From an uncultured Heliobacteriaceae bacterium (lineage in GTDB: Bacteria; Acidobacteriota; Blastocatellia; RBC074), in NCBI GenBank assembly GCA_964563495.1, contig CAZLYK010000014.1:58-64057 (forward strand): a DNA stretch of 64,000 nt. The letters run 5' to 3'. The translations under genes were made by a program, and so were the position numbers. The notes under the pieces are model-generated. The model was not told the DNA's origin. It was given only the letters and a program-made list of their open reading frames with translations, and did not search any database. Below are positions 11,273 to 29,504 of this stretch, piece after piece (the first letter of the stretch is position 1; every line of letters starts with the position of its first letter).

Positions 11273-11284
11273 CGTCTTCAATTC

Positions 11285-13656: not shown

Positions 13657-13789
13657 TAAGATGCATTTATCAACCACTGTCCTGGGGGGCACGATTCGAG
13701 CGAGAGTGGGTCAGCGATGCGCCGATTGGCAAAGAACGAGCACGAGGGGGGCGTGGCCTCCGAGGGCAAATGAGGTTGAAGGAGGTTTT

Positions 13790-13960
13790 ATGATATTGAG
13801 TAAATTGTTTGCGCTGGTTGTTATCCTGACGAACACATCGGTGCTGGCGGGAGCGGATCGTCCGCAGGCGTTGGAGGTTGTTCCCTCGGTTGATCTTTTT
13901 CGTTACGCTGGAAAGTGGTATGAGATAATGAAAGGAAAGCAGTTGCCTGAATCGCCATGA
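13790..13960 (+). pseudogene. Truncated bacterial lipocalin (Blc-like) N-terminal fragment / leader ORF coupled to the MerR-B12 regulator
   Basis: GGAGG RBS. 56 aa: signal peptide MILSKLFALVVILTNTSVLAG, then VDLFRYAGKWYEI, which matches the first lipocalin signature (E. coli Blc FDAKRYLGTWYEIAR). It stops 12 codons later, whereas full-length Blc is about 170 aa. The stop overlaps the next gene's ATG (ATGA, 13957-13960). Confidence 0.55.
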
Positions 13961-14886
13961 ACAAGATGGTCTATCCAATCCGCGCCGTTTCCAAGCTGAC
14001 CGGGATCAGCATTGATACGCTCCGCGCCTGGGAGCGGCGCTATCAGGTCGTTGCCCCACACCGCGACGAGCGCGGGCGGCTCTACACGGAAGCCGATGTG
14101 CAGCGCCTGCGCCTGCTCAACGCGGCGGTGGAGAAAGGGCACGCGATTGGCCGGTTGGCGGGACTCAGCGATGAAGAACTAAACGCTCTGGTTGCCCGCC
14201 CGGCGATTGTGGAGGATGCCGCCGGTATCATGAAGCCGCCTCTCCGGGAAGAGCCTGCCCTGGCGCTGAGTTCAGTCATGGCCGCCATCAAACGGCTGGA
14301 CTATGCAGAGGCAGAGCATGAACTGGCCTTGCTGGCGGCTGTCCTCGCTCCGCGCGACCTGGTTTACCGAGTTGCTCTCCCCTTGATGCAAAAGGTCGGC
14401 GAGTCCTGGCACGAGGGGAAGCTCAGCATCGCGCAGGAACATATGACTTCTGCGCTCTTGCGCAACCTGGTGGGGGGTCTCGTCCCACACTACCGGCGAA
14501 CTTCGCCGGCCGGCAAGCTCTTGTTTGCCACACCCAGCGGAGAGCACCACGAATTCGGCATTCTGCTCTCGGCCATGCTGGCAGCGGGCGGCGGACTGAG
14601 CATCGTCTATCTGGGAGCCGATCTACCCGCCGCAGAGATTGTCGTCGCCGCTCAGAAGACCGCGCCGCAGGCGGTCGTCCTTGGATTCATCGGGGCCAAC
14701 GGCGCCAAAGCGGGGATTTTGGAAATACAAAAGATCGCCGATAAGCTGCCGTCACAAATTGAACTCTGGGTCGGCGGGCCGCAAGGAGAGGCTTTAGTCG
14801 CAGAGATCCGGAAGACGCGGGCGCTGATGATCGAAGATTTTCAGATGCTGGAACAGCACCTGGTCAGATTGGGAGCGCGGTTTTAA
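13957..14886 (+). CDS. MerR-family transcriptional regulator with C-terminal cobalamin-binding domain (CarH/LitR-like light-responsive regulator)
   Basis: N-terminal MerR HTH (YPIRAVSKLTGISIDTLRAWERRY..YTEADVQRLRLL). C-terminal B12-binding-like Rossmann with ExHxxG (GEHHEFG) and a later VGG. Divergent from the fasciclin-SDR-photolyase string. Confidence 0.75.
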   Translation: MNKMVYPIRAVSKLTGISIDTLRAWERRYQVVAPHRDERGRLYTEADVQRLRLLNAAVEKGHAIGRLAGLSDEELNALVARPAIVEDAAGIMKPPLREEPALALSSVMAAIKRLDYAEAEHELALLAAVLAPRDLVYRVALPLMQKVGESWHEGKLSIAQEHMTSALLRNLVGGLVPHYRRTSPAGKLLFATPSGEHHEFGILLSAMLAAGGGLSIVYLGADLPAAEIVVAAQKTAPQAVVLGFIGANGAKAGILEIQKIADKLPSQIELWVGGPQGEALVAEIRKTRALMIEDFQMLEQHLVRLGARF

Positions 14887-15186
14887 GTCAGTTTGGCGGC
14901 GGGTAATTTCGGGTACAGCCGCGGGTAGATCGTCCTGGGCGAGCGTCGTCATCACGCATCGCGGATCGGGCAAGGCCACACTCAGTCGAACTCCCTCGCC
15001 GATCGCGAGATCATGGCCAATCCAGTCATGATGATGTCTGTTTCGATCTAGTCAAAACTTGATGTCTTGACGCAGAATAGTGACATCGATTGCCTGGGGG
15101 GCTGAACTTCCCGCAATCTTACTGCCCGCTCGACATATGTTGACGGGCGGTTCGCAGTGATCAACATTTGAAAGAGAGTGTGCTCC

Positions 15187-18129
15187 ATGCCATCCAAGTT
15201 CTGCAGTCGCTTGTGTTTCCTGGCTTTGAGCCTGAGCCTGATCAGTTCCGCCCTGGCGCAGTCGCCGCCATCGCCTGTGGTCCCCCCTTCAATCCCATCA
15301 TCGGCGGTCAAGGATCTGGCGCTGGCGCTGGCACAGGCTGCGTCAGAGGAAGAACAGGAGCGATTGCTGGCGCAGCAGAAAGACCTGGTCAACAGCTCGC
15401 TATTAGCCGCGCTCAAGGGCCTGATCCAGCCCCTCACCCGTAAAGGCGATAACGCTCAGGCTCTGAGAATCGCCCAGCTCGCAGTCCGGATTGGAGAGAG
15501 GATCGGAGACCGTCCGGGGCTGGGCGAGGCGATGACTTCTCTTGGAGCGAGCTACCTTAACCTGTACCGTTATGCGGAGGCTTTGAATTACCTTGAGAAG
15601 AGTCTCGTTATTTATCAAGAATCCGGCGATAAGCGAGGGATGGCGGGTGCGCTGCGATACCTCGGCAATCTCCACAGTAGACAAACACGTTTCGATCAGG
15701 CCTTCGAGTACTACAATCGAAGTCTGGCGCTGAGCAAAGAGAGCGGGGATAGAAGCCTGACCGCCTCGATTCTCAATGACATGGGCAGAGTATACGATTC
15801 GCAGGGACGTTATGAACTCGGTCTGGAGCATTTGGAGAAAAGCCGGGCGCTCAGTCAAGAACTGAACGACAAGGAGATGCAATCGACAGCCTTGAACAAC
15901 ATTGGCATTCATTATATTGATCAGGGCCGGTACGCGGACGCACTCGAATACCTTCAGCGGAGCGTCAAAGTTAACCAAGAGATGTGGAGCACAAATCAGC
16001 AGGGGTTGGCCGTTCGCCTGAATAATATCGGCATTATCTACAAACGCCAGGGCCGTTATGATCAGGCCCTGGAGTACTATCGCAAAAGCCTGGAGATCCA
16101 TGAAAAGGGTGGGGACAAAGGCAGAATCGCCGAGGCACAGAACAATATCGGAGTTATCTATAAAACGCAGGGACTTTTTGAGCAGTCGCTGGAGTGGTTG
16201 GGGAAAAGCCTGAAGAATTTTCGGGAGGTCAGCGCCAATGGCGGCATCGCCGCGAGTTTGAACAACATTGGCGACGTTCATCGCCGGGAGGGACGCTATG
16301 ATCTTGCGCTGGCAGCCTTCCGGGAGAGCCTCCGGATACGTGAAGAGATAGGGGACGGATTATCAATCGCCCTGACGCTGAATAATCTCGGCCGGCTGTA
16401 CCAGGACCAGGGCCGTTATTCCGAGATGCTCGAGGTCAGTCTCCGCGCCGCCAGACTGGCTGAGGAAAGCAATGATCCCGAAGGGCTCTGGAATGCCCAG
16501 AATAGCCTCGGCATAGCGCAGCGCGCACTAGGGCAGCCGGCGGCTGCTCGCCAGAGCTTTCTCGATGCCATCGCCACTCTCGAATTGCTGCGTCATCAAG
16601 TCGCCGGAGGCGCGCAGCAACAGCAAACTTTTCTGGAAAACAAACTCTCGCCCTGGATTGGCATGATCGACCTCCTCATCTCACAAGCTCATGAGGCTGA
16701 GGCCCTGACCTTTGCCGAACAGTCGAAGGCGCGAGTGCTGATCGACGTGCTTCAGGCCGGCCGCGACAGCCTCTATAAATCGCTTTCGCCGGAGGAACGG
16801 CAGGCAGAGGAGCAGAAGCGACTTGAGCTGGTTGCGCTCAACTCGCAGCTCACCGGCGAGTTGCGACGCAAACGGCCTGACCCCGCGCGCGCGGCCGGGC
16901 TGAAAGCCGAGGTCGCGCAGACCCGGCTCGAGTTCGAGGCGCTCGAAACCAGCCTCTACGTGGCCCATCCCGAACTGAAAGTGCACCGCGGTGAGTCCTC
17001 GATCATCAAAGCCGATGAACTCGCGGCCTTGTTGCCCGATGCAACGAGCGCGGCGCTTGAATACGTCGTGGCGGATGACAGGGCATTTCTGTTTGTCATG
17101 ACGAAGGCGGTTGGGAAAAAAGAAGCTGAGGTTCGGGTCTACACGTTGCCGATCAAACGAGATGAGCTAACAAGTCAGATCGAAGCTTTCCGGCAACAGC
17201 TTGCCGAACGCGACCTCGGCTTTCGCCCCTCGGCGGCAAAGCTCTATCAATTGTTGCTCAAACCAGCCGAGGCGCAGATTAAGGGGAAGACCAATCTGAT
17301 CATCGTGCCGGACAACAAGTTGTGGGACTTGCCATTTCAGGCGTTGCCGGCTATCGGGGGAAGGTTCCTGATCGAGAATGCCGCTATCTCTTATGCGCCG
17401 TCGCTCACCGTCCTAAGAGAGATGACCAGGCGACGAGAGAGTCAACAGACGGATACAGCCGGATTGGCCTTGCTGGCTCTGGGCAATCCGCTGCTGGGTA
17501 AAAAGACCTTTGAGCGCGTGACGCTGGCGCAGAGTAATGAAAGGCTCGCTCCGCTGCCGGAAGCCGAACAGGAAGTGAAGGCGCTGGGGCGGATGTATGG
17601 TGCGGCACGAAGCAAAGTCTACATTGGCCCGCAGGCCCGCGAAGATCGCGTCAAGAACGAAGCCGGCCAGGCCGGAATTCTTCACTTCGCCACGCACGGA
17701 AGCATGAACAATGCTTCGCCGATGTACTCGCATCTGGCCCTGGCGGAAGGCGACACCAACGAAGACGGGCTGCTCGAAGCCTGGGAGCTGATGCGGCTCG
17801 ATTTGAAAGCCGACCTGGCAGTGCTCTCCGCCTGCGAAACGGCGCGTGGCCGTTCCGGCGCAGGCGAAGGCATGATCGGATTGACCTGGGCGCTCTTCGT
17901 CGCGGGCGCGCCGACAACTGTCGTCAGCCAGTGGAAAGTCGAATCGGCCAGCACGCGTGATTTGATGCTCAGTTTTCATCATCAATTGCAAGCGCAGCCG
18001 GCGGCTGCAAAGATGAAACTATCGAAGGCCGAAGCCTTGCGGCAAGCGGCGTTGAAGCTCATGAAAAACCCGGAAACCAATCATCCGTTTTACTGGGCGG
18101 GATTCGTGCTGGTGGGCGACGGCAGGTGA
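15187..18129 (+). CDS. Secreted TPR-repeat CHAT-domain (caspase-like) protease, module 1
   Basis: ORF from GTG 15178, first ATG at 15187. Signal peptide ..CFLALSLSLISSALAQ. More than 10 TPR units (repeated LNNIG..Y..QGRYDQALEYY pattern). C-terminal CHAT domain with a putative His/Cys dyad (ILHFATHG ; LAVLSACETARG). Confidence 0.85.
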   Translation: MPSKFCSRLCFLALSLSLISSALAQSPPSPVVPPSIPSSAVKDLALALAQAASEEEQERLLAQQKDLVNSSLLAALKGLIQPLTRKGDNAQALRIAQLAVRIGERIGDRPGLGEAMTSLGASYLNLYRYAEALNYLEKSLVIYQESGDKRGMAGALRYLGNLHSRQTRFDQAFEYYNRSLALSKESGDRSLTASILNDMGRVYDSQGRYELGLEHLEKSRALSQELNDKEMQSTALNNIGIHYIDQGRYADALEYLQRSVKVNQEMWSTNQQGLAVRLNNIGIIYKRQGRYDQALEYYRKSLEIHEKGGDKGRIAEAQNNIGVIYKTQGLFEQSLEWLGKSLKNFREVSANGGIAASLNNIGDVHRREGRYDLALAAFRESLRIREEIGDGLSIALTLNNLGRLYQDQGRYSEMLEVSLRAARLAEESNDPEGLWNAQNSLGIAQRALGQPAAARQSFLDAIATLELLRHQVAGGAQQQQTFLENKLSPWIGMIDLLISQAHEAEALTFAEQSKARVLIDVLQAGRDSLYKSLSPEERQAEEQKRLELVALNSQLTGELRRKRPDPARAAGLKAEVAQTRLEFEALETSLYVAHPELKVHRGESSIIKADELAALLPDATSAALEYVVADDRAFLFVMTKAVGKKEAEVRVYTLPIKRDELTSQIEAFRQQLAERDLGFRPSAAKLYQLLLKPAEAQIKGKTNLIIVPDNKLWDLPFQALPAIGGRFLIENAAISYAPSLTVLREMTRRRESQQTDTAGLALLALGNPLLGKKTFERVTLAQSNERLAPLPEAEQEVKALGRMYGAARSKVYIGPQAREDRVKNEAGQAGILHFATHGSMNNASPMYSHLALAEGDTNEDGLLEAWELMRLDLKADLAVLSACETARGRSGAGEGMIGLTWALFVAGAPTTVVSQWKVESASTRDLMLSFHHQLQAQPAAAKMKLSKAEALRQAALKLMKNPETNHPFYWAGFVLVGDGR

Positions 18130-18170
18130 CGATAAGAGACAGGATAAACAAGTTGATTTCAGCTGGATCG

Positions 18171-19487
18171 TTAGCTGCGCGATGCCCGCAGATTGGACAG
18201 CAGGCGGCTGACAATCTCTGAATTCGGATTAGCTTTTTGCAAAACGCGTAATTCCCGTTCGGCTTCGTCCAGCATCCCGGCCTTGAGATAGAGAAGAGCC
18301 AGCGTCAGGTGAGATGACGCATAGGCGCGCCGAGCCCGCATGAGTTCATTCGCCTTCGCCTGATCGAGAATGCGGAATTTCGCCTGCGGCGCCGGCGGAC
18401 GCGGGGCGATCAATTCCTGCCCGTCTTTGATGGCTTTCACCTGCCAGGAATAGATTCCGCCGCGTCTGAGGGACTGCGGCGGCGTCCACGAACCATCGGA
18501 GAGTTGTGGGCTGGTTGCCACCAGGGTGAACGTGTCATCGTAAATCTCTACCAGATAGCCGGTCGCGCCATCCAGCCGGGACCAGCGGAAAGCCGGGCGA
18601 TCCGTCAGTATTACTTTTCCGACCGGCTCGATCGGTGAAAACTTGCCATCCTGGCTGTCTCCACCTCTGATCGTGCCACTCCCTGGCCGGACCAATCCCG
18701 CCAGAAGTGGTGATTTTTCAAATCGCTGATCGGTGAGTGCTCCCTTGACCATTTGCTGGTAAGCCGGAGGTAAGTTGTCAGTCCCTGAAAGTTTGCCTTC
18801 CCGATCCAGTATCACCTGGCCTCCACCATCATTGAGTTGGGCGATCAACATCCCTCCTGCGTCCTCGATAGGCGGGGTCGGAGATACGATCGGAGTTACT
18901 ATCGGTGAGGGTATAGTTTTGGCTATCTCCGGCTTCATCTCTTTCTGTTGCAGCGCCTGCCAAATCAGCACACCGGCTGCGATCAACAAAAACGCCGCCA
19001 ACGCCGAGCTGAAAACGAGCGCGGGAGATCCGGGTACGACTGAAAAGATCGTTCTCACAAGCCGACGCCATCGATTTTCAGTCACGACGCCAATCATGGA
19101 AGGCTGATATTCACGGTTCAGTTCGGAGGCGACCTCGGCTCTGAAAACGAGCAGGTCATTCACTGTCATGTCGCACTGCCCGCAATTGGACAGATGATCT
19201 TTGACAAGCTGCAGCTCCCCGCCGGCCAGGGCGCCGTCAACATATTCAGCCGTTTGTTCATAAGTCAGATGCGCCCGCCCCGCCGGCGAAGAGACCGTCT
19301 CTGCCGCTTCACCGAAGACATCGGATTGCAGCGCAAAGAAAGCCATATCGCCATTCATCGCCCTATCGACCTGCCGGCGGCACGTTTCGCAAACGCCCAG
19401 GTGATCGGATGCAGACAGCAATTCGGCTGCTGAGAGCGCACGACGGCCGTAGTCATCTATCTGGTTGTTCGTAAGATGTTCGGACAA
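18171..19487 (-). CDS. Membrane-spanning anti-sigma factor with two zf-HC2-like motifs and an extracytoplasmic domain ending in a TPR
   Basis: TTG start. DHLGVCETCRRQV and DHLSNCGQCDMTV (Hx3Cx2C twice). One TM helix (LVFSSALAAFLLIAAGVLIW). C-terminal ~230 aa are predicted outside, with a TPR-like end. Lies immediately downstream of a sigma-factor gene. Confidence 0.65.
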   Translation of the reverse strand: MSEHLTNNQIDDYGRRALSAAELLSASDHLGVCETCRRQVDRAMNGDMAFFALQSDVFGEAAETVSSPAGRAHLTYEQTAEYVDGALAGGELQLVKDHLSNCGQCDMTVNDLLVFRAEVASELNREYQPSMIGVVTENRWRRLVRTIFSVVPGSPALVFSSALAAFLLIAAGVLIWQALQQKEMKPEIAKTIPSPIVTPIVSPTPPIEDAGGMLIAQLNDGGGQVILDREGKLSGTDNLPPAYQQMVKGALTDQRFEKSPLLAGLVRPGSGTIRGGDSQDGKFSPIEPVGKVILTDRPAFRWSRLDGATGYLVEIYDDTFTLVATSPQLSDGSWTPPQSLRRGGIYSWQVKAIKDGQELIAPRPPAPQAKFRILDQAKANELMRARRAYASSHLTLALLYLKAGMLDEAERELRVLQKANPNSEIVSRLLSNLRASRS

Positions 19488-19570
19488 TGATTTTATACCT
19501 CACAGCCGGGGACCCGACTGCCTTCCTACTCGCATAAGTTGCCAAAATGCGCCGGATATTACCACCGGGT

Positions 19571-20626
19571 TCAAATAAATCCTTTCAACCGCCGCGCCAA
19601 TCGTTCACGCGCCGATTTGCGCGCATTGATGACCTGCTGCCGCGTCATTTGCAGCAAGTCGGCAACCTTCGCATCTTCAAGCGGCAATTCGTGCCAGATC
19701 TCCGCCAGCTTTTCGGCGCCCATCTCCAGCGCCTCCGCGAGTTGGCGAAATGTCGCGATCCCGACGGCCGGAAATAGCGCGAGGCAGCCCCTTCCTTCAG
19801 CGTCTCTCAGGTTAAGCAACAACGCCACACGCTGATTCAATGGGAGTTGCCGTACCTCCTCCCAGAGCCTCTCTAAAAAGATCCGTTTCTCGACTTGCCA
19901 CGCGGCATCCGGTTTTCCGTCGGGGATTTCAAACTGGGCATCATTTCCCGGTTGGTCATTAAATTCAACCGGTTGATCCTTGATCTGCAAAAGCGAAACC
20001 AGCGTGGCGATTAGTTTATCGAATTCGATCGGGCCGCCGAGACAATCGAAAATCACCGCCAGCGCACCACTCCAATCCGCCTGGTTGCCGGTTTTGAGTA
20101 ACCTCATTCGGGCCAGCAGGGTCTCATCGTCTGACAGTTGTCTGAGCCGTTCCTCGGTTGCGGGATTCTTCCGTCTCTGCCAGACCGCAAAGCCGGCCAT
20201 CTGTTTTCTATTTTCATTTTGCCAGATCGCAAAACCGGCCTGGCGCGTGAGCAGGTAATAAAGACGATTTTTAAATGCGTGCCGCTCCGGAGACTGCCGG
20301 CGCATCCAGCGAGAACAAGCGCGATGCGCGATCACCGCCGCCAACCCGCGCAGATCACTGATCGGGCGGGCGTCGGGTCGTTCACGAAACTGCTGTATGG
20401 CAGCCAGTAATTGCACGATGGCTTCCTGCTGGAGGTCATTTGCATCAGCTTGCCTGGTCGCATGATAAGAATTTAGATGAAGCTTATAGGCGATGACCCC
20501 CTTGATCACCGGCTCGGCGTGTTGAGTAATAAGGTGTGAGACAAGATCGCCGACCTGTTCGTCGTCAGTCAGCAGCAATAATGGTTTGAGCAAGGGATCG
20601 ATCTCTGCTGAGTGAGTTCTCGCCAT
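19571..20626 (-). CDS. Sigma-70 family (ECF-like) sigma factor with a long insertion between regions 2 and 4
   Basis: 351 aa. Region-2-like segment (DLQQEAIVQLL..LRGLAAVIAHRACSRWMRR) and region-4 HTH (LPLNQRVALLLNL..VADLLQMTRQQVINARKSARERLARRL) are separated by about 130 aa. Confidence 0.65.
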   Translation of the reverse strand: MARTHSAEIDPLLKPLLLLTDDEQVGDLVSHLITQHAEPVIKGVIAYKLHLNSYHATRQADANDLQQEAIVQLLAAIQQFRERPDARPISDLRGLAAVIAHRACSRWMRRQSPERHAFKNRLYYLLTRQAGFAIWQNENRKQMAGFAVWQRRKNPATEERLRQLSDDETLLARMRLLKTGNQADWSGALAVIFDCLGGPIEFDKLIATLVSLLQIKDQPVEFNDQPGNDAQFEIPDGKPDAAWQVEKRIFLERLWEEVRQLPLNQRVALLLNLRDAEGRGCLALFPAVGIATFRQLAEALEMGAEKLAEIWHELPLEDAKVADLLQMTRQQVINARKSARERLARRLKGFI

Positions 20627-20827
20627 TCATTTCAGTCCAGTAGTTTGGTCCGGCTGTTTTTTTTCATTTGCCGGGGGTTTGGTTGTGGCATGCCCTCTCC
20701 AGAACGTATCTACGACGCACTCAGATAAATCTTCCGGCGTGGTGGTATCGATCCACCCCCAGGACGTGATACATGATCGGCCCGATCAGCAAGGCTATCG
20801 CGCGTGTACTACCTGGGCGAGCCATAG

Positions 20828-21574
20828 TCAGATCTGTATCTTTGAGAAGAGGTGCCCACCGAGGGCAAGAAAAATTGCCGCGATCAGACAGAGCACCAAG
20901 ATATCCACCGGCGCGCCAAAATGAGAGATCCCGATCAATGCGCCGCGGAGACCGTCGATCCCGTAGGAAAGCGGATCGATTTTGGTTGCGGCGCCGAGAA
21001 GCTTCGGGATGTTGGTCAGAGGAAACAACGCTCCGGAGAGAAAAAAGATGGGCATGACCAAAAAGTTCATGACAAGCTGAAAACCTTGCATATCCTGAAG
21101 CGCGGAGCCGATCGCCGTACCCAGCCCGGCGAAAACGATCGCAATCAAGAACATAAAGAGAAAGGCGAGCGGAATCGACGCCAGGCTAACAGGTCGAAAA
21201 CCCGCGATCAGGCAGACGGTGAAAACGAGAGTCCCCTGCAACATCGCGACGGTCGCCCCGCCCAGTGTCCGGCCAATCATGATGGTCACGCGTGGAACGG
21301 GAGCGACCAGCGTCTCTTTTAAAAACCCGAACTGCCGATCCCACAACAATCCGATCCCGGAAAAGATGGAAGTGAAGAGAATCGTCATGCCGACGACTCC
21401 GGGAGCAATAAACTGCAAGTAACTGCCATGGCCTGACTGTTGAAAAACCGGGCCCAGCCCGAAACCGAGCACGAGCAGATAGAGTAATGGCTGTCCTAAA
21501 GATGCCACGATCTGGGCTCGCGATCGGACATACCGCTTGAGCTCACGAAGCCAAAGGATATAGACGGCGCTCAT
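20828..21574 (-). CDS. ABC-2 type transporter permease
   Basis: ATG at 21574 with GGAGGAG upstream, 4 nt after the ATPase stop. Six hydrophobic segments, ABC-2 (DrrB/NodJ-like) architecture. Confidence 0.8.
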   Translation of the reverse strand: MSAVYILWLRELKRYVRSRAQIVASLGQPLLYLLVLGFGLGPVFQQSGHGSYLQFIAPGVVGMTILFTSIFSGIGLLWDRQFGFLKETLVAPVPRVTIMIGRTLGGATVAMLQGTLVFTVCLIAGFRPVSLASIPLAFLFMFLIAIVFAGLGTAIGSALQDMQGFQLVMNFLVMPIFFLSGALFPLTNIPKLLGAATKIDPLSYGIDGLRGALIGISHFGAPVDILVLCLIAAIFLALGGHLFSKIQI

Positions 21575-21578
21575 TGCC

Positions 21579-22364
21579 TCATCTCCTCCACATTTTTGCG
21601 ATTTGACGCATTTGATCGATCGAGCCCGCTTTCTCATCGCGAATCGACGAGCCGGTCAGCGCCAGGAATGCATCTTCGAGCGATTCACTTGACGTCTGTT
21701 CCTTCAATTCCGCAGGCGAGCCCTGAGCCACGATTCTGCCGTGATCGATGACGGCGATGCGATGCGCCACCCGATCTGCCTCGTCCATGTAGTGAGTGGT
21801 CAGGAAGACTGTGACACTTTCCGTCTCGTTGAGGTGTTTGACGTGTGTCCAGAGTTGGTTGCGGCTCTGTGGATCGAGTCCCAGCGTCGGCTCATCGAGA
21901 AAGAGAATTTTGGGCGTGTGGAGCAGACCTCGGGCAATCTCGAGGCGTCGCTTCATGCCTCCCGAAAACTCCTTGACGGGTTTATCGCGCCTCTCCCAGA
22001 GCTCGAATAACCTGAGCAACCTCTCGGTTTGCTCGAGGCGGATCCTCCGTGGGACATGATAGAGCACCCCATGCAACTCCATGTTTTCAGATGCGGTCAG
22101 TTCACCATCGAGACTCGGGTCTTGAAAGACAATCCCGAATTGACGTCGCGCCTCGTTCGGCTTAACCACCGGATTGAGGCCATCCAACTCGATCTCCCCG
22201 CTCGTCGGTTTCAAGAGCGTGGTCAGCATTTTGATCGTCGTCGTCTTGCCTGCCCCATTCGGTCCCAGGAATGCGAAGATCTCGCCTTTCCGGACTTCGA
22301 AGGAGATCTCGTTGACAGCGGTGAATTCACCAAAGTTTTTAACCAGCTTCTCAACTCGAATCAT
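21579..22364 (-). CDS. ABC transporter ATP-binding protein (DrrA/ABC-2 subfamily)
   Basis: Start at MIRVEKL (ATG 22364). Walker A GPNGAGKTT, signature FSGGMKRRLEIA, Walker B ILFLDEPTLGLD. Confidence 0.9.
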   Translation of the reverse strand: MIRVEKLVKNFGEFTAVNEISFEVRKGEIFAFLGPNGAGKTTTIKMLTTLLKPTSGEIELDGLNPVVKPNEARRQFGIVFQDPSLDGELTASENMELHGVLYHVPRRIRLEQTERLLRLFELWERRDKPVKEFSGGMKRRLEIARGLLHTPKILFLDEPTLGLDPQSRNQLWTHVKHLNETESVTVFLTTHYMDEADRVAHRIAVIDHGRIVAQGSPAELKEQTSSESLEDAFLALTGSSIRDEKAGSIDQMRQIAKMWRR

Positions 22365-22470
22365 AATTACCTGCCATGACATGATGATGATGATAAACAG
22401 GATATCTTGAACTTGAATGAATGAGAAGGAGATGGATAGGCTCAGGGCGGGAACATTAGGATTACCTGGT

Positions 22471-23754
22471 TCAAGATTTTGGTTGGAGCAGCCGCTCGCC
22501 AAGCGTGTAGGCTCTTGTCTCGGGATGATAGATCTTCCAATCGAACCAGTAATCTTTCAGCACGATGAGTTTCTTCAGTTGTTTTCCGGCGAGTGGGCCG
22601 CTCACTGCTTTGCCGGTGAAATCCCACGTGGTTGCGGTCTCAGCATCGGTTAGCTGGATCGGCGAGGTTTTAGGGATCACGAAAAATTCGAGCGTGCGCC
22701 CGTCAACTGTCCGCTCAAAGGCCCTGACGGATTTGTTGTCATCACCCAAGACAATAAACAGAGGCGTTGCGCGATTGCCAACGCCAAGACTGTCGATGAT
22801 CAGCCGTTGTTTTTCCAGGTCAGCCAGCGGATAGGCGATCGCCTTGCCGTTGATCACCAGCCCCGCTATCAGCGTGCGCGGCGGCAGTTTGTCATTGGGA
22901 TTGACGGGAGTAACCACCGGCAGCTTGGCGTATTCCTTCTCCCAATCAGCGTCCTCATATTTCTGCTTTACCCGCTCATCCGGCTTGAGCACGCGCCCTT
23001 GACGGTTTTCACGTTTCCATAGAGCAAAGCTAAGCTCATCGTTATAAACCCGGGTCAGCCTTTTTCCCTTGAACGGCCCGTGAATCGCTTCGCCCGACAC
23101 CTGCTGCCACCAGGTGCCCGTCTCCTCATCGCGCATGATGAAGTTTTGGTTGTTGATGCCCGCCAGGTGGAACGTCAGCTTCTTCCCGTCAACTTCGGAT
23201 TCCCACACCAGACCGGTGTGACAGAGCGTTCAGTAAGTCGCCGTGATCGGCTTGCCCCCGACGACATCATTAATCACGTGGTGATAGCCCATCTGGCGCA
23301 CGGGATAGGCCACTGCCTCGCCATTGACTTCGACCGCCATGACCATATCGCTGTCGGCGACAAAGCCGGCTTCGCCGATGCCGGCATAATCAGCGTTCGG
23401 CAACGGATTGAACATCCACTCGAAATGGTTCTGCCGCGCAAACCAGGTAACGACGAGCAATGGCGCAAACAGCACCGGCATTGCCAATCGGCTCCACCAG
23501 CGCAGATCACGCCACAGCCGTATGGAGAGGGCGAGAAACAAGACCATCGACGCAACTGTCACTATCGGCGACAGGCGGCGCAGCCGGTAAGACCATTCAA
23601 CGCCCGCTGCGGTCTGCGCTTTGAATGGCATGATGACGAATACCGGGATTGCCACCATCGCCACAGTTGCAACGACAATCAGTAGAAGCAACAGCCATAA
23701 CCTCCAACGTCCCGGTTTGCCCGTCTTGCTCGCCTCGTTTGATCTAGTGTTCAT
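22471..23754 (-). CDS. DUF3179 family membrane-anchored protein with one in-frame TGA (23230-23232): candidate selenoprotein (UxxC), alternatively a nonsense pseudogene
   Basis: ORFs 23230..23754 and 22471..23208 share a frame and are separated by one TGA plus 7 sense codons. The joined 427-aa product is a complete DUF3179 architecture (..VAYPVRQMGYHHVINDVVGGKPITATY-TGA-TLCHTGLVW..TGTWWQQVSGEAI..YWFDWKIYHPETRAY). The TGA aligns with the first Cys of the family's TYCPLC motif as I recall it. Confidence 0.6.
23204..23220 (-). promoter_or_regulatory. SECIS-like mRNA hairpin downstream of the in-frame UGA
   Basis: mRNA CACACC-GGUCU-GGUGUG has a perfect 6-bp stem and a 5-nt loop. The stem starts 9 nt after the UGA and the loop 15 nt after it. 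The GGUCU loop resembles the apical loop of the E. coli fdhF SECIS (from memory). Confidence 0.5.
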
Positions 23755-23755
23755 T

Positions 23756-23977
23756 TCACGACGTTAACAGCGCCACGATTTCCGCTTGTCTGGCCAGCAT
23801 CTCTGCCTGATTCGCCAGCATAGCTTCGAGCTTGTTTTGATTGGACTGAATGACCCCCTGATAGGTCAGAATAATCCTCTGATTTTCCTGGATAAGCTTC
23901 TGGTAGTCTATGGTCGGTTCCTGGTTGGCCGGAATGCACTCCTGATCTTTGATCACATCATTCTCAGTCATCGTCAT
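23756..23977 (-). CDS. Small Gln/Asn-rich coiled-coil hypothetical protein (first gene of the DUF3179 operon)
   Basis: 73 aa (or 71 from the ATG at 23971, which has better AGAGG spacing). Heptad-like QENQRIILTYQGVIQSNQNKLEAMLANQAEMLARQAEIV. Its stop lies 1 nt before the DUF3179 ATG. Confidence 0.45.
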   Translation of the reverse strand: MTMTENDVIKDQECIPANQEPTIDYQKLIQENQRIILTYQGVIQSNQNKLEAMLANQAEMLARQAEIVALLTS

Positions 23978-24401
23978 ACCTCTTTGAAAAATATGTTTAT
24001 CCTCCCGCCTGAAGACGGGACTATAAACATCTTATTTGTACGGATCGTGATACGACCGGCTAAAGCAGCAAAAATTGCCCAGGCAGCTGCCCACGACGAG
24101 CGCAGGCAGGACTGCCTGAGACTCAACATCCAGCAAAGCAACCACCCCTTGTCGGGGTTTGGATTTATGCTTGGTGTTTTAGCCAAAACTGCTGGTTTGA
24201 GTTGTTCGCAATTACTCAGCCATGATTGGTATCGGGGGCTCACTATCCTGGCAACTCATTCAATCGACAAAAAATAAGTTTTTTTGGCTATCAATCATCA
24301 GGTAAGAGGATATGAATATTAGTGGCGATATATAACGATTATGACGATATCTCGCCAGCGCCGGCGACCGGTCGCGAGCGCTATCTAAAATAAAGGCAGC
24401 G

Positions 24402-27400
24402 CTACTTCGGTTCGCCCATGAGCACAAATGACGCCCAGTAATACGGTGCTTGCCATTGCGGCTGCCTGGACAGCTCCGACTGCGCCGCCTGCAGCGCCGC
24501 CGCCGGTCGCAGGCCTTTGCTCAACATCCCGCGGTAGAACTTCGTCATCAACTCCGCCGTCGCCCGGTCATTGACATCCCACAAACTGACGAGTACGCGC
24601 GCCGCCCCCGCGTGGATAAACCCGCGCGTCAACCCGACCAGCCCCTCGCCCCGAATTTCTTTGCCAAGCCCAGTCTTGCATCCGCTCAGCACCACCAATT
24701 CTGCGGGCAGGTTGAGGTTGAACACTTCGACCATACGCAGGAAGCCATCCTGCGTACGGCCTTCGCGGTCAAGCAGCGAGAGGACCAGCCCCGAAAGTTC
24801 GGGATGCCTGTCGTTGAGCAAACCGTGCGTGGCGAAATGGACATAACGGTATTGGCCGAGCGACGGATCGAGCGCCGCCGCTTGATTGGCCGCAAAATCG
24901 AACGCGCCGAAGCTTTCGGTTTTGGGCGCGAGGGCGAGAATCGCCCGGGCTTCCACCCGCGTGTAAGGCAGACGCGTGAGGCTGCCACGTTCACCTTCCA
25001 ACCCGGCAGATTGCACGGCGCGCGTCAGATCGTCGGTTGCTATCGTCGCCGTCAAATTCTCTTTAGGCGCTTGGCGTTCACGGGCGATCCGTTGACGGAC
25101 CTCCTTGGGCAGACGTTCATCCTCCGCTTCAAAGACGGGATCGGCCAGTACGGCCAGCAGTTTGGGCGCGGGCTCTCGGTCTCTCAACTCGCGCCGCAAC
25201 ACGGCCAGCGCTGAAGCCGACGGCAAGTGGACGACTTCGTGATTGGCGATAAGAGGGACGGGGCGAGCGGTTCTTTTTCCCCTGGTCTCCCCGACGCCCA
25301 TTCCCCCGCTCACAGGCAGCGCCGCAAAGGGAATCAATTGCAATGTGCCATCGGCCACGATCAGCAATCGGTGTTGTCGTAGTTCCGCCGCGACCGGTCG
25401 GAGGATCATCCGGCTGAGCTCGACGCCCGCGGCGCTCAAATCTTTGTCGGCTTGCTGAAGGCGTTGCGAACGCTGCGCCGGTTCCTCGAATTTGACCGGG
25501 CGGTTGCGCGCCGTCAGCAGTTCATAGTAGCGCCTCGCCGCCTTCTCGATCACTTCGCGTCTGGGCAGTTGATAGCTGTTGAAGGCCTTGCCGGTGATGG
25601 CGAAGAGGAAACTCTTCTCTTCGCCCAGCGCGTATTCGAGCAGAATCGTATTGGCGTCAACTACGACCTCTTTTTGGATTTCCACCAGCCCAAGTGGCTG
25701 CGGTTGCGTGAGGGCTGCGTAGCGAGGGCTGCGCTCGCGGATTTCGGCTTGCACCCGTTCGTAGTCGGAGGTCAATTCCGAGATGGATCTGGCGAGGGTG
25801 GCGGACTGCGTTTCGGTATGCTTGCCGGAAAGCAGGCGCGTCTGTTCGGCGGCTTTGGCCTCTAGCTGGCTTTGCAATCGCTTTTCCTGCGCGAGCAGCG
25901 CCGGCTCTACCCCCTCACGAATATCGACGCGGGCTTCGATCAGCGATTCAAGCAGGCTGCGGGCGCGGGCGCGCTCGCTGGTTTGGAACGCCAGGCGGTC
26001 GTGCCCGGCGGCGGGTTGACGGCGGTTCAGCTCCATGAGCAATTCCATGTAGTCGGAGTAAAACCGCTGCCTTTTGCTCAACAGTGTGGCGCGCTGCGCT
26101 GATAGCGCGGCTTTGCTACGCAGGCTTTCAACCAACTTGATCGCCGTCTCGAAATGCGCGCGCGCGCCGGTCAGGTCGCCACGCTTCCAGGCAATGGTCC
26201 CGAGCAGCCATTGCGTGATGCTGCCAAAATTCAGGAAGGCGGCTTTTTCACTCAGACCCTGGGACTCGCGGCAAGCTTCAATGGCCCGGTCATACTCACC
26301 CAGCCTGGCGTGGGCCTCGCAAAGGTAATTGAAATCGGCGATCACCTCATAAGGATCGAGAGGTCGTAGGCTGTTGATAGCAATGGCTTGGCGGAGCGCC
26401 TCAACCGCTTTCGGGTTTTCTCCCAACGCCAGGTAAGCCCGCCCCAGTCCGGAGAATGCGAGAAACTGGATGCGGGTATCACCTTGATTCTGCAGGAGCG
26501 GGATAGCCTCCAGGTATTTGTCGCGGGCGAGCTGGTAATCGCCGAGGAGAAGGTGGATTTCTCCAATTTGTGCGAGCGTAACGGCGTCGCCTTGCGCGGC
26601 TCCCGCGACCGACCGCAGCGACATCGATTCTTCGTAGTAAGCGATGGCCCGGCGCTGATCGCCCAGGTTGAAGGAGGTTGTGCCAAGATTCTGCAGCGCT
26701 GTCGCCAAATTATAACGGTCGGCGGTGGCCCGATAGATTTGCGCTGCCTGGTGGAATAACTCGAGAGCCTTAGTTAGTTCACCCATCGTCCCATAGAGTT
26801 TGCCCAAAGCAATGCAGGTGTAGGCCACGGCCCGTGGATGATCGAGTCGGCGGCGGAGCGCCAACGATTGTTCGAAGTAATCCACCGCCGTTCGAGGGTC
26901 ATTCAGATTGCGATGGAGGCGGGCCAACTCGTACAAGACTGTCGCTTCGTCCTTACGCGCCTCGACCTCACGGAAAAGGGTGAGCGCCTCTTTTAAGTAG
27001 CGCACTGCTTGCTCTGGCTCGACCCCAAAATGGAGTTCCCCCAGAAAGAACAGGCCGTCGGCCTCTCCCCACCGGTCGCCGCTCGCTTGCCAGATGGGTA
27101 GCGCGGCCGCCACTTTCGGAATGCTCTGCCGGCGGACTTCGCGTGGTTGGAGGAAAAGATCGAGGGCCTCGACGCCGTCCATGATCCGGCGGGCTTGTAA
27201 GCGCAGGGAATCTTTTTCGAGGGCTGGTCTGAGTTCTTCCAGCTTGAGCGCGTAACTCCCATCAACCTTGCTGGAGACCTGACTAAGTTCAACTAGATAG
27301 TGGCCGCTCGTTTCCGCAATCAGGTCAACCCTGCTCTGACTACTGAAGAGATGGGTTCCGTTCTTCTCCACCAGCTTCTGACCGGCGGGAGATATGATTC

Positions 27401-27683
27401 TGAGAATGACGCTGCCCGTTTCGATCGTCAGGCGGCAGTATTGCCCCGCCGTCAGCGGCAGCAGATAAACGTATTTTTGCCCGTCCCGCAACTGCTGCTC
27501 GTAGCTGACCCCGAGGTTCAGTGACGGCGGGTTTTGCGTCAGCTTTGCCGCCGGTTGCTGGGCCGCGAGCGCCGGAATTGGATTGGCCGATAACGCCGCC
27601 ACCAAATACAAGCCGGCAAGAAGGCTGGCCACACGGAAAATTGGATTTGGCAATGTCGAAGGCGAGCAAGAGCTTCTGGTCAT
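24402..27683 (-). CDS. Secreted TPR-repeat CHAT-domain (caspase-like) protease, module 2
   Basis: 1093 aa. Signal/anchor (FRVASLLAGLYLVAALSANPIPALAAQ), an N-terminal beta-sandwich-like module, about 10 TPRs, a coiled-coil linker, and a C-terminal CHAT domain with a putative dyad (YVHFATHG ; LVVLSGCKTGLG). Lies 33 nt downstream of the anti-sigma gene. Confidence 0.85.
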   Translation of the reverse strand: MTRSSCSPSTLPNPIFRVASLLAGLYLVAALSANPIPALAAQQPAAKLTQNPPSLNLGVSYEQQLRDGQKYVYLLPLTAGQYCRLTIETGSVILRIISPAGQKLVEKNGTHLFSSQSRVDLIAETSGHYLVELSQVSSKVDGSYALKLEELRPALEKDSLRLQARRIMDGVEALDLFLQPREVRRQSIPKVAAALPIWQASGDRWGEADGLFFLGELHFGVEPEQAVRYLKEALTLFREVEARKDEATVLYELARLHRNLNDPRTAVDYFEQSLALRRRLDHPRAVAYTCIALGKLYGTMGELTKALELFHQAAQIYRATADRYNLATALQNLGTTSFNLGDQRRAIAYYEESMSLRSVAGAAQGDAVTLAQIGEIHLLLGDYQLARDKYLEAIPLLQNQGDTRIQFLAFSGLGRAYLALGENPKAVEALRQAIAINSLRPLDPYEVIADFNYLCEAHARLGEYDRAIEACRESQGLSEKAAFLNFGSITQWLLGTIAWKRGDLTGARAHFETAIKLVESLRSKAALSAQRATLLSKRQRFYSDYMELLMELNRRQPAAGHDRLAFQTSERARARSLLESLIEARVDIREGVEPALLAQEKRLQSQLEAKAAEQTRLLSGKHTETQSATLARSISELTSDYERVQAEIRERSPRYAALTQPQPLGLVEIQKEVVVDANTILLEYALGEEKSFLFAITGKAFNSYQLPRREVIEKAARRYYELLTARNRPVKFEEPAQRSQRLQQADKDLSAAGVELSRMILRPVAAELRQHRLLIVADGTLQLIPFAALPVSGGMGVGETRGKRTARPVPLIANHEVVHLPSASALAVLRRELRDREPAPKLLAVLADPVFEAEDERLPKEVRQRIARERQAPKENLTATIATDDLTRAVQSAGLEGERGSLTRLPYTRVEARAILALAPKTESFGAFDFAANQAAALDPSLGQYRYVHFATHGLLNDRHPELSGLVLSLLDREGRTQDGFLRMVEVFNLNLPAELVVLSGCKTGLGKEIRGEGLVGLTRGFIHAGAARVLVSLWDVNDRATAELMTKFYRGMLSKGLRPAAALQAAQSELSRQPQWQAPYYWASFVLMGEPK

Positions 27684-27715
27684 TGTCGTGCGCTCCTTTC
27701 CGTAGCGGCTGAGGG

Positions 27716-28705
27716 TTATTTCCGTTGACGTTCCAAATGGCGAATTTCATCGAGCAAGTCGTGGCTGAGCCGATCCGCGAGCTTGTCCGCATCGCCAGTG
27801 TATTGACGCCCGTTCGTGCGGGGTGTCAACGGCCAGATGACCTGTCCGCCGGCGTTGACTATACGCGCGAAGGCCGAGATACGCCGGGAAGGCACCGGCG
27901 GCGCTTCCCGCACGGTCAGCTTGAGGGCGATCTCGGCGGCTTCGCGGTCTTCGGTCAGCATGAATTGCCCGCTCGACTGCAAACGCTGTTTGAGCGATTC
28001 TGCAAATTGACGGCGCTGTGGATGTGAACCGCTGAGTTCGAGGTAAAGCCGCTGTCCGGCGAGCAGCGCATTGACAGCCTCTTCCCGCTCGCTTCTGACT
28101 AGATCCCGGTCCGGGGCAGCCCCCCGGCCGCGGACATCAATCGCGATCACCTCGTCGCTTGCCGGCTCTGGGGCGGGCGCACCGATCATGGGAGAGGGCG
28201 AAGGTGCAAGACTGGCTGTCACGCTCGGCGCGGGAGCCGGCGACGTTTGCGCGACGTCCGCCGGTTTCGGCCGCGATTGCCTGAAAAGAAGATAACCAAG
28301 CCCTCCGAGAATCACCACCAGCAGCGCAAAGGCGAGTGCAGGCTTGAACGAAACTTGAAATGGCCAGAGCGCGCTCAGCCAAGATGTCTGGTCAGGCGCC
28401 GGCGCGGGCTTTGACAATTTCACCAAATGAGGTCGCAGCCTTTGCCACGAGCTTTCGATCTCATTCGGCGTAACCTCGGCCCGGCCGGATTTTTGAAGCT
28501 CGATGAATTCGTTCGCTTCGCGATAGATTTCGAGACAGGCCGCGCATTGCGAGATATGCTCGCGCGCAAACGGTAGTTCACCGGGCGCAATCTCTCCCCG
28601 GCAGTAATCGTAAATCTCCTCCACCCCCAAATGGCGACCGGGCGGATGATTGAATTGCTCGCCTGCGCGCTTCATATAGCGCCGAAACTCTCCGATCTGA
28701 TCCAT
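27716..28705 (-). CDS. Membrane-spanning anti-sigma factor (zf-HC2), module 2
   Basis: N-terminal HISQCAACLEIY (Hx3Cx2C). One TM helix (ALAFALLVVILGGLGYLLF), a Pro/Ala/Ser-rich linker, and a ~130-aa extracytoplasmic C-terminal domain. Starts 21 nt after the ECF sigma stop. Confidence 0.7.
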   Translation of the reverse strand: MDQIGEFRRYMKRAGEQFNHPPGRHLGVEEIYDYCRGEIAPGELPFAREHISQCAACLEIYREANEFIELQKSGRAEVTPNEIESSWQRLRPHLVKLSKPAPAPDQTSWLSALWPFQVSFKPALAFALLVVILGGLGYLLFRQSRPKPADVAQTSPAPAPSVTASLAPSPSPMIGAPAPEPASDEVIAIDVRGRGAAPDRDLVRSEREEAVNALLAGQRLYLELSGSHPQRRQFAESLKQRLQSSGQFMLTEDREAAEIALKLTVREAPPVPSRRISAFARIVNAGGQVIWPLTPRTNGRQYTGDADKLADRLSHDLLDEIRHLERQRK

Positions 28706-28725
28706 AGACAGCTTCCGAGGTTTTT

Positions 28726-29346
28726 TCAGAAATCTATCTTGCCGAAATATCGTCCCAGTTTATTTCGCAAATCGCCTTTCGCCTTGTGCAGGTGCGCTTT
28801 AACCGTGTTGAGCGAAATGCCCAGCAAATCAGCGATCTCATGATATTTCAGTTCACTGTTGACGTAGAGCAATGTGCAGCGGCGACACTGTTCGGGCAAT
28901 TCGAGCAGCGCGTCACGGAGCAGTGCCAGCTTCTCCTTCTCCAGGACCACCTCCTGCGGATCGGGGCCTTGCGCCGCAAGGCCGGTAATGCTCCCGCTCT
29001 CTACCGGTTCACTTCCCGCTCTTTCCCCGACGATGTCGAGATGCAGCCCTTTGCGTTTCCCGGCATTGGCGTGTTCCCTGTCCCGGCGCCAGACGTTGAG
29101 GGCAATCTTGAAGAGCCATCCCTCAAACTTCGACCCGTCGTGCAGGTCCTCGATAGAAGTAAAGACAGAAAAAAACGTGTTCTGGGTTAGGTCGCGCGCA
29201 TCTTCGGGCTTCATCCCTTTGTAAAGAAAGAAGCGGTGGATCGAGGAATAGTAGCGGGAATGAACCTCCCCATAGTTCGCTTCGACCTCCTCTCCGCGCC
29301 GGATTGCGCTGATGATCTCTTCGGTTGTCCGGTGAGAGGTGTTCAC
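28726..29346 (-). CDS. ECF-type RNA polymerase sigma factor, module 2
   Basis: 206 aa, GTG start. Region 2 (YYSSIHRFFLYKGMKPEDARDLTQNTFFSVF..WLFKIALNVWRR) and region 4 (LPEQCRRCTLLYVNSELKYHEIADLLGISLNTVKAHLHKAKGDLR). Confidence 0.85.
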   Translation of the reverse strand: MNTSHRTTEEIISAIRRGEEVEANYGEVHSRYYSSIHRFFLYKGMKPEDARDLTQNTFFSVFTSIEDLHDGSKFEGWLFKIALNVWRRDREHANAGKRKGLHLDIVGERAGSEPVESGSITGLAAQGPDPQEVVLEKEKLALLRDALLELPEQCRRCTLLYVNSELKYHEIADLLGISLNTVKAHLHKAKGDLRNKLGRYFGKIDF

Positions 29347-29504
29347 GGCGCGCGATTATCGTTAGCCTTCGGATTTTTCAGAAGCCAGGTAAACCATTTC
29401 CTCGACAACCTTCCATGCTTCCTGAATGGACGATTTGCTCCGGCCGATCCGGATCGCGGCAGTCGTGGAAGCCAAAGTGCATTCAGCCGAAATGGAGGAA
29501 AAGT

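Follow-up and report, generated by a model that had tools for sequence, protein, structure and literature searches.

Introduction

In the RseA-DegS-RseP and RsiW-PrsW-RasP cascades a single-pass anti-sigma factor is inactivated from outside by a dedicated site-1 protease. The classical site-1 proteases are serine or metalloproteases which are not usually found in a conserved trio with TPR sensors, and we know of no description of a caspase-fold enzyme that works in trans in the periplasm. In this work we analysed a stretch of 64,000 nucleotides (nt), hereafter the window, from an uncultured bacterium of the Blastocatellia (contig CAZLYK010000014.1), which carries two gene modules, each coding for a sigma factor (SIG1, SIG2), an anti-sigma factor (AS1, AS2) and a predicted exported protease composed of TPR and CHAT domains (CHAT1, CHAT2; Table 1). 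Both anti-sigma factors have the single-pass topology known from RseA and RsiW proteolysis. We tentatively favour, with a confidence that falls a little short of an even chance, that the exported protease acts on the ectodomain or linker of the anti-sigma factor as its sensor or site-1 protease, with or without feedback.

A TPR-CHAT domain has been linked to an anti-sigma factor in the DdvS/DdvA system of Myxococcus xanthus, where DdvA is a zinc-binding anti-sigma (ZAS) factor whose periplasmic TPR-CHAT part bears a His/Cys dyad and is joined by a flexible linker to the transmembrane (TM) helix (PMC11506125). The structure of DdvA has been solved and its authors proposed that site-1 self-cleavage precedes cleavage by RseP; the fused type has been reported only in Myxococcota and in one Comamonas (PMC11506125). 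The modules of the window are like DdvA in their cytoplasmic zinc-finger anti-sigma domain, one TM helix and flexible periplasmic linker, and in that a dyad-bearing periplasmic TPR-CHAT is placed, as predicted from the genes, on the side from which the sigma/anti-sigma pair would sense. They are unlike DdvA in that the TPR-CHAT is a separate exported protein, encoded convergently or collinearly, while the anti-sigma factor has an unrelated ectodomain of its own. The host belongs to the phylum Acidobacteriota instead of the Myxococcota, no defence island lies nearby, SIG1 is not a canonical extracytoplasmic function (ECF) sigma factor and AS1 has tandem ZAS motifs. Searches with a profile of AS1 retrieved RslA, the N-terminal domain of DdvA (E 0.19) and ChrR at non-significant E-values only. 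Since the defining fusion is missing, the genes being separate, we regard the locus, by analogy, as a split analogue of DdvS/DdvA and not as a member of that family.

In the type III-E craspase the TPR-CHAT protein Csx29 cleaves Csx30, an inhibitor of the ECF-like sigma factor CASP-sigma (PMC10028731). Sequence comparisons indicated that Csx29 is the best match of the CHAT domains of the window among solved proteins (E 0.0014-0.007), with the dyad aligned, while separase matched at E 0.026. The likeness to the craspase lies in a TPR-CHAT protease that there cuts a sigma-factor inhibitor to alter transcription. However, the craspase is cytoplasmic, RNA-activated via Cas7-11 and CRISPR-linked, whereas the proteins described here carry predicted signal peptides and are not accompanied by cas genes, and the craspase profile NF041237 scored 18.7 bits against a cut-off of 300. 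The SAVED-CHAT/PCaspase cascade and CalpL-CalpT-CalpS, known from type III-B CRISPR signalling (bioRxiv 10.1101/2023.06.23.546230), likewise couple a protease with an output through a sigma or anti-sigma factor; unlike the present modules, they work in the cytoplasm, are switched on by cyclic oligonucleotides and sit in defence loci.

A separately encoded, exported TPR-CHAT protein accompanying a sigma/anti-sigma pair was not found described in the literature, and the ECF re-classification paper is silent on CHAT in its main text. The first-pass annotation of this DNA, made from the sequence alone, had stated that neither a role of the TPR-CHAT protein as sensor or protease nor a role as output of the sigma factor had been functionally characterised; this has to be narrowed, as the fused DdvA (PMC11506125) and the pair Csx29/Csx30 (PMC10028731) exist.

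Linkage of TPR-CHAT genes to sigma and anti-sigma genes

Homologues of AS1 were scanned in one genome per species, which gave 53 loci, 47 of them evaluable downstream of the anti-sigma gene and 36 evaluable as an upstream control. CHAT genes were searched in the 6 kb that follow the anti-sigma homologue and in an upstream control region of the same size. A CHAT gene was found downstream in 32 of the 47 loci, with CHAT fragments in 3 further loci, and upstream in 2 of the 36 (Fisher p 3.8e-9, uncorrected for phylogeny). These loci come nearly all from metagenome-assembled genomes (MAGs) of one class (Blastocatellia/Pyrinomonadaceae), and the counts are not phylogenetically independent. A homologue of SIG1 was located directly upstream of the AS1 homologue in 42 of the 47 loci; the downstream CHAT genes were mostly orthologues of CHAT1, convergent with the anti-sigma gene and 14-100 nt from its stop codon.

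The composition of the trio varied among the relatives. In loci L038, L039 and L044 the sigma factor is a canonical ECF protein of about 190 amino acids (aa) whose gene overlaps that of an anti-sigma factor with an AS1-type ectodomain and one zinc finger, as against two in AS1; a CHAT1 orthologue comes next in L039 and L044, and the contig of L038 ends before that point. Behind SIG1-AS1 in L004-L006 there is a collinear gene for a CHAT2-type protein that shares the N-terminal beta domain of CHAT2, while in L054 (Thermoanaerobaculia) the CHAT gene lies upstream of the sigma gene instead, so that both order and orientation differ. Linkage was kept down to 35% identity of the anti-sigma factors. 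The sigma swap (L039, L044), the swap of CHAT subtype (L004-L006) and the rearrangement in L054 make it unlikely that vertical inheritance alone explains the adjacency.

The module-2 trio of sigma factor, AS2 and Pfam-confirmed TPR-CHAT was recovered in three of four related contigs. The fourth (L059) carries the sigma factor, AS2 and a downstream open reading frame (ORF) of 788 aa which runs off the contig and is without a Pfam assignment; this contig probably keeps the trio too. The genes flanking module 2 are different in L058.

The first-pass annotation had read the trio as a functional module and had suggested that conservation of the CHAT neighbourhood be checked. The enrichment in the 53 related loci, on the downstream side and kept through swaps of both sigma factor and CHAT subtype, agrees with that reading, and we are confident that each trio is a functional unit and not a chance adjacency.

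Beside module 2, contigs L055 and L056 carry a divergent unit (6.9-9.1 kb and 13.8-15.8 kb) composed of an ECF sigma factor, a zf-HC2 anti-sigma factor, a DUF4097 protein and a PDZ/Wzy_C protein, which the window does not have.

The TPR-CHAT proteins

Pfam analysis identified the CHAT domain (PF12770, threshold 24 bits) in CHAT1 with 251 bits (E 1.8e-74) and in CHAT2 with 224 bits (E 3.5e-66), together with many TPR matches in both proteins, TPR_12 being strong in CHAT1. CHAT1 is composed of a signal peptide (residues 1-24), a TPR array (about 90-470) and the CHAT domain (684-981), while in CHAT2 a beta-rich domain of about 110 aa lies N-terminal to the TPR array and the CHAT domain. The two proteins align end to end with 26% identity (E 1e-58). 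The beta-rich domain of CHAT2 (residues ~45-160) has no Pfam match and is also present in the CHAT2-type protein of L005. Many CHAT1 orthologues have an extra N-terminal NTF2/SnoaL-like segment, which is not present in the CHAT1 of the window.

Each protein has one N-terminal hydrophobic stretch with an AxA end and no further membrane segment. Signal peptides were read from this stretch and the AxA site; cleavage is predicted after MPSKFCSRLCFLALSLSLISSALA and before Q in CHAT1, and after ...ALSANPIPALA and before A in CHAT2. The predicted signal peptide is kept in the CHAT1 orthologues.

The His/Cys dyad corresponds to H837/C883 in CHAT1 and H953/C1002 in CHAT2, and it aligns with the dyad of Csx29; the signal peptides and dyads that the first-pass annotation had assigned to both proteins were thus found. 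Alignment of 37 sequences, namely 36 of the CHAT1 family (that of the window and 35 from related loci) and CHAT2, revealed that the dyad is invariant in all 37, as are the flanking motifs HFATHG and LSACETARG. Invariance of the dyad and of its surroundings argues, at the level of sequence, for retained catalysis. Among CHAT1 orthologues the CHAT domain shows 59-83% identity, whereas the TPR part shows about 30-64%; a CHAT domain so much better conserved than the TPR part fits a variable sensor placed on a constant protease.

The CHAT2 orthologue of L056 is split into two ORFs (9033-12216), and L032, L051 and L053 carry CHAT1 fragments only, which suggests that the protease gene is decaying in some relatives.

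Anti-sigma factors and sigma factors

One TM helix was identified in each anti-sigma factor, at residues ~157-181 of AS1 and ~123-141 of AS2. AS1 contains the motif HxxxCxxC twice (H29 and H98), both copies being invariant in 23 orthologues, and AS2 contains it once (H50), so that the zinc-finger motif and single TM helix predicted earlier for both proteins were found, with a second motif in AS1. The zf-HC2 family (PF13490, threshold 22.2 bits) scored 27.7 bits for AS1, which also matches NF052375 and RseA-type profiles, and 18.1 bits for AS2, for which one homologue carries a precomputed PF13490 domain. AS1 and AS2 are alike in the second zinc-finger region and the TM helix only (29% identity over 164 aa, AS1 residues 61-205, E 5e-13), and their ectodomains show no relationship to each other.

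The AlphaFold2 model of AS1 (predicted local distance difference test, pLDDT, 70.7) shows two N-terminal helical bundles in tandem (residues 1-126), each with one HxxxCxxC motif. Distal to the TM helix, placed at 160-181, the model has a disordered Pro-rich linker (181-212), an FN3-like sandwich (~285-373) and a TPR-like C-terminal helical domain (376-437), the closest structures being the C-terminal domain of MtxA and then FN3 domains. Judged from the model, the modules of the ectodomain are of a protein-binding kind and do not resemble an enzyme, and the topology, with a single TM helix and the disordered juxtamembrane linker, fits that expected for regulated intramembrane proteolysis. In AS2 a Pro/Ala-rich linker is followed by an ectodomain of about 150 aa.

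Database searches indicated that AS1 has 1423 detectable homologues, the best 120 of which (the window's own protein aside) show 98-100% query coverage and 57-73% identity, and that its ectodomain family comprises 870 clusters at E <= 1e-30. In the 150 best relatives of the ectodomain it forms the C-terminus of the protein, the lengths being ~170-810 aa and typically 400-480 aa, with the exception of two proteins with multiple repeats (2220 and 3113 aa). For AS2, eight homologues only were detected among 5.8 billion proteins.

SIG2 matched Sigma70_r2 with 31.2 bits, r4_2 with 47.3 bits and TIGR02937 with 74.3 bits against a cut-off of 42.9; by these sequence matches it is a canonical ECF (group 4) sigma factor. 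SIG1 scored 23.1 bits for Sigma70_r2 against a threshold of 24 and 42.6 for TIGR02937 against 42.9, and had no match to region 4. The designation ECF-type, which the first-pass annotation had given to both, therefore stands for SIG2 and is doubtful for SIG1. Sequence links of SIG1 to SIG2 or to solved sigma factors were searched and rejected: no similarity between SIG1 and SIG2 was detectable (E 5.8, hhalign being also negative), a profile built from 23 SIG1 orthologues had no match among PDB sequences, and the fold search alone pointed to sigma factors. In that search the AlphaFold2 model of SIG1 (pLDDT 74.8) matched sigma-70-family chains only, all of them weakly, the best being the three-domain sigma factors sigma 32, SigD, sigma 28 and SigB over ~340 columns (E >= 0.012). 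The model includes a middle domain (residues ~130-215), and within region 4 about 40 aa are inserted. As far as the model can be followed, SIG1 is a divergent member of the sigma-70 family in which a middle domain is added and region 4 carries an insertion, and not a canonical two-domain ECF sigma factor.

The SIG1 family has about 2000 detectable relatives, mostly of about 351 aa. A precomputed Pfam domain was present in none of the 120 relatives listed; NCBI-derived entries are named hypothetical protein, and most of those from JGI are named sigma-70 or sigma-24 family.

The two modules had been described as paralogous in the first-pass annotation. The description holds for the CHAT proteins (26% identity) and, in the anti-sigma factors, for the N-terminal/TM part, and it does not hold for the sigma factors or the anti-sigma ectodomains; as judged by sequence, neither module is a simple copy of the other.

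Promoter-like elements

Most CHAT1 orthologues are preceded, in the orientation of the gene, by the consensus GGAAGTTGCYGAAC-N9-TATTAC, at 13-350 nt from the CHAT1 start as taken from crude ORF starts. A strict pattern, AAGTTG-NN-GAA-N11-ATTAC with at most one mismatch in the first block, occurred in 84 copies in the 53 loci and in none of ten Markov randomisations. When the spacing was left free (9-13 nt), 85 of 87 copies had 11 nt. Nearly all fixed-spacing copies (83/84) are on the strand opposite AS1, and 21 copies stand directly before full-length CHAT1 genes. The copy upstream of CHAT1 in the window is degenerate and fails a scan with up to two mismatches. A copy in the SIG1-AS1 spacer (~90 nt) was found in 32 related loci (L002-L051, ~9925-9955, minus strand) and in the window, directed antisense into SIG1; transcription from this copy, if it is active, would run into the sigma gene. 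One sense copy was found in L011, 392 nt upstream of SIG1.

The geometry of the motif (GGAAGTT, 16 nt, TATTAC) is one that we take to resemble ECF promoters such as that of E. coli sigma-E (GGAACTT-N16-TCAAA). The motif is found together with the SIG1-type sigma factor; it was missing from the canonical-ECF loci L039 and L044, and missing or variant in distant relatives. Tandem CHAT1 paralogues were observed behind one SIG1-AS1 pair in L007, L029, L036 and L046, and in L029 and L036 each of them is preceded by a motif copy of its own. Loci that lack a convergent CHAT1 (L017-L021, L043, L005 and L014 at 14600-16580) contain one to three motif copies opposite AS1, some of which point straight into the 3' end of AS1 with no ORF between.

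A scan of metagenomes revealed at least 120 further motif sites, most of them before other genes, and the assumption that the motif is confined to this locus was rejected. The ORF following the motif matched CHAT1 by BLAST at 14 of 121 sites, and clustering placed 20 downstream ORFs in the CHAT1 family. Eight motif-preceded genes encode class-A beta-lactamase-like proteins of ~320 aa (PF13354; L063, L091, L096, L116, L150, L159, L161, L173), and others encode TolC-like (L077, L145), DUF6624-VWA (L105, L130) and DUF2278 (L142, L167) proteins. This suggests that the motif marks a wider regulon of mostly exported proteins. According to crude gene calls, 52 of 88 intergenic metagenome copies are compatible with a promoter and 36 face the 3' end of a gene, which weakens a pure promoter reading.

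Hairpin, repetitive extragenic palindromic (REP) element and riboswitch were considered as identities of the motif and rejected. Over the whole window no Rfam family reached its gathering threshold, and in 14800-20900 the matches were at chance level only; RNAalifold on 186 motif instances found no structure, column covariation was negligible and folding was no better than that of chimeras (z -0.05 to -0.25). As RNA structure was not supported, the motif was treated as a DNA sequence motif. We take it to be a promoter or operator type, probably one dependent on SIG1.

A shared ECF-type element was not found upstream of SIG1, where some loci have a sigma-70-like TTGCCG-17-TAGATT, and an autoregulatory ECF promoter 5' of SIG1 was rejected for this reason. 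Promoters shared by sigma gene and CHAT1 could not be compared informatively in L044 and L039 because the sigma gene abuts the upstream gene. The element TGGAAGGTTGTCGAGGAAATGGTTTA upstream of SIG2 differs from the CHAT1 motif, is common to all five orthologous loci and is unique in the window; it is a plausible candidate for an autoregulated promoter of the collinear SIG2-AS2-CHAT2 operon.

Proposed mechanism and alternative explanations

In the mechanism that we propose, the cytoplasmic zinc-finger domain of the anti-sigma factor would hold the sigma factor. The periplasmic part, made up of a disordered Pro-rich linker and a protein-binding ectodomain (FN3-like and TPR-like in AS1), would be the partner, and probably the substrate, of the separate Sec-exported TPR-CHAT protein. 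A signal bound by the variable TPR/N-terminal part would activate the conserved caspase-like domain, which would clip the anti-sigma factor outside the membrane at site 1; intramembrane and cytoplasmic proteolysis would then free the sigma factor. In module 2 the protease would be co-transcribed with the sigma and anti-sigma factors, while in module 1 it would have a promoter-like element of its own and may also be induced by the sigma factor, as feedback, since that element co-occurs with the SIG1 type.

Cleavage of the anti-sigma factor by the exported protease is favoured because the adjacency tracks the ectodomain rather than the sigma factor, because the CHAT domain is better conserved than the TPR part, and because the DdvA fusion and Csx29/Csx30 offer precedent by analogy. 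We infer a physical interaction of the two proteins, the cleavage, the direction of signal flow and also which sigma factor reads the motif.

Several points weigh against this proposal. Self-cleavage of DdvA has not been demonstrated and its triggering signal is unknown (PMC11506125), and the CHAT profile gave no match to DdvA at E <= 1. A Rosetta-stone fusion of the AS1 ectodomain with a TPR-CHAT was looked for and rejected, none occurring among the best 150 relatives of the ectodomain. In about a third of the AS1-family loci (L011, L014, L017-L020, L043, L049) no CHAT gene lies within 6-10 kb, so that the anti-sigma factor can exist without an adjacent protease; conversely, CHAT1-family genes occur in tandem, and on contigs without visible sigma and anti-sigma genes. 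The promoter-like motif of CHAT1 is shared with beta-lactamase-like, TolC-like and other genes, which gives the protease the look of a regulon output. To these is added the concentration of the related loci in one class, mentioned above.

The strongest alternative, somewhat unlikely in our judgement but a serious contender, is that the TPR-CHAT protein is the output of the system, an exported protease of the sigma regulon used in periplasmic turnover or in attack on or defence against foreign proteins, while the anti-sigma factor senses some other cue. This possibility, already raised in the first-pass annotation, gains support because CHAT1 orthologues carry their own motif, of ECF-like geometry, which co-occurs with the SIG1 type, is missing at the canonical-ECF loci and in metagenomes precedes further exported-protein genes (the eight beta-lactamase-like genes, the TolC-like and the VWA genes). 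The probably autoregulated operon that contains CHAT2, the tandem copies of CHAT1 and the loci whose anti-sigma factor has no adjacent protease would also be accounted for. Against it, adjacency of CHAT1 tracks the anti-sigma ectodomain even though the sigma factor, and hence the promoter specificity, has been exchanged, and the DdvA fusion puts the TPR-CHAT on the sensing side of the anti-sigma factor. Moreover, the spacer copies of the motif are antisense, the sense copy being the distant one 5' of SIG1 in L011, and an output role is compatible with an input role through feedback; sensor and output roles may both be true, as a feedback loop.

Quite improbable, to our mind, is a non-proteolytic role in which the TPR-CHAT protein, as an RseB-like co-anti-sigma factor or ligand receptor, shields the ectodomain from, or exposes it to, another site-1 protease. 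In its favour, protein-binding modules are present in both the TPR arrays and the FN3-like/TPR-like ectodomain. In resting DdvA, furthermore, the CHAT site is inactive and dyad mutants have no phenotype in unperturbed cells, and the bulky TPR-CHAT domain blocks RseP (PMC11506125). Invariance of the His, the Cys, HFATHG and LSACETARG across the 37 sequences, which argues for retained catalysis, speaks against it.

That the adjacency is meaningless, a gene order inherited within one class with a coincidental second module, is already disfavoured and hardly credible: the restriction of nearly all loci to Blastocatellia/Pyrinomonadaceae MAGs and the third of loci without a CHAT gene would fit it, but linkage extends to 35% anti-sigma identity, takes another order and orientation in L054, survives swaps of sigma factor and CHAT subtype, recurs in an unrelated second module with different flanks and exceeds by far the upstream control (2/36).

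Returning to the proposal that the protease acts on the anti-sigma factor, it can be combined with the readings of SIG1 and of the motif into one description. In this combination an undescribed system, widespread in Blastocatellia, would use a secreted TPR-CHAT site-1 protease in trans on a tandem-zinc-finger anti-sigma factor which controls SIG1, the representative of a new three-domain sigma-70 family. SIG1 would read a new promoter type, GGAAGTTGCYGAAC-N9-TATTAC, and thereby drive the protease genes, genes for other exported proteins and, from the spacer copy, antisense transcription into its own operon. We consider it unlikely that all of these parts hold together.

Gene layout and neighbouring genes

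The six ORFs reported by the first-pass annotation were all present and translate without interruption (Table 1). The gaps, reported there as 21, 33 and 42 nt, are each one nt shorter, namely 20 nt (SIG2/AS2), 32 nt (AS2/CHAT2) and 41 nt (CHAT1/AS1). SIG2, AS2 and CHAT2 are collinear, while CHAT1 is convergent with AS1; no terminator-like hairpin was found in the 41-nt gap between the latter two.

Table 1. Positions of the genes and promoter-like elements of the two modules in the window.
Feature	Position	Strand	Basis
CHAT1, predicted exported TPR-CHAT caspase-like protease, 980 aa from ATG	15187..18129	+	ORF, Pfam, dyad
Degenerate promoter-like motif copy GGGGGGCTGAAC-N9-ATCTTAC, 64 nt 5' of the CHAT1 ATG	15096..15122	+	
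AS1, single-pass anti-sigma factor, 438 aa	18171..19487	-	
Motif AAGTTGCCAAAATGCGCCGGATATTAC in the 83-nt SIG1-AS1 spacer, antisense to both genes	19536..19562	+	
SIG1, divergent sigma-70-family protein (by model), 351 aa	19571..20626	-	
CHAT2, predicted exported TPR-CHAT protein, 1093 aa	24402..27683	-	
AS2, single-pass anti-sigma factor, 329 aa	27716..28705	-	
SIG2, canonical ECF sigma factor (by sequence), 206 aa	28726..29346	-	
Conserved element TGGAAGGTTGTCGAGGAAATGGTTTA, ~45 nt 5' of SIG2	29390..29415	-	

The modules are flanked by ordinary chromosomal genes, among them those for an ABC-2 transporter, DUF3179, a photolyase, a CarH-like regulator, a sulfatase and glycosidases. The names attached to its relatives place the organism among the Blastocatellia/Pyrinomonadaceae of the Acidobacteriota. 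Defence genes and cas genes were not found in the window. PADLOC returned only a generic TPR match and a negligible CARF3 match to SIG2 (15.2 bits, E 0.003), and membership in a defence system was rejected on this negative result.

The DUF3179 domain is split over the adjacent ORFs 22471-23208 and 23230-23754 (minus strand), profile positions 12-64 falling in one and 74-292 in the other. The split is also present in the independent Logan contig L001, and it probably represents a disrupted gene or a sequencing frameshift. Just 5' of CHAT1, the region 9714-14886 encodes a photolyase, an NmrA-like/DUF2867 protein, a fasciclin-domain protein and a regulator with MerR and B12-binding domains (CarH-like), a cluster that looks light-related. 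Directly upstream of the module-2 operon, the minus-strand gene 30012-31004 encodes a protein of 330 aa with an N-terminal OmpR/ToxR-type winged helix (Trans_reg_C, residues 38-113) and an uncharacterised C-terminal part.

Biological meaning

Of the links between an anti-sigma factor and a periplasmic TPR-CHAT, DdvA alone has been studied. In the split form described here the protease and its putative substrate are separate proteins, so that cleavage of the DdvA type becomes directly testable in trans. The split form is common, with about 2000 relatives of SIG1 and about 1400 of AS1, in soil Acidobacteriota that are abundant and poorly studied. If the proposal is true, a caspase-fold enzyme joins the site-1 proteases of envelope signalling, and SIG1 together with its candidate promoter would extend the catalogue of sigma-factor types.

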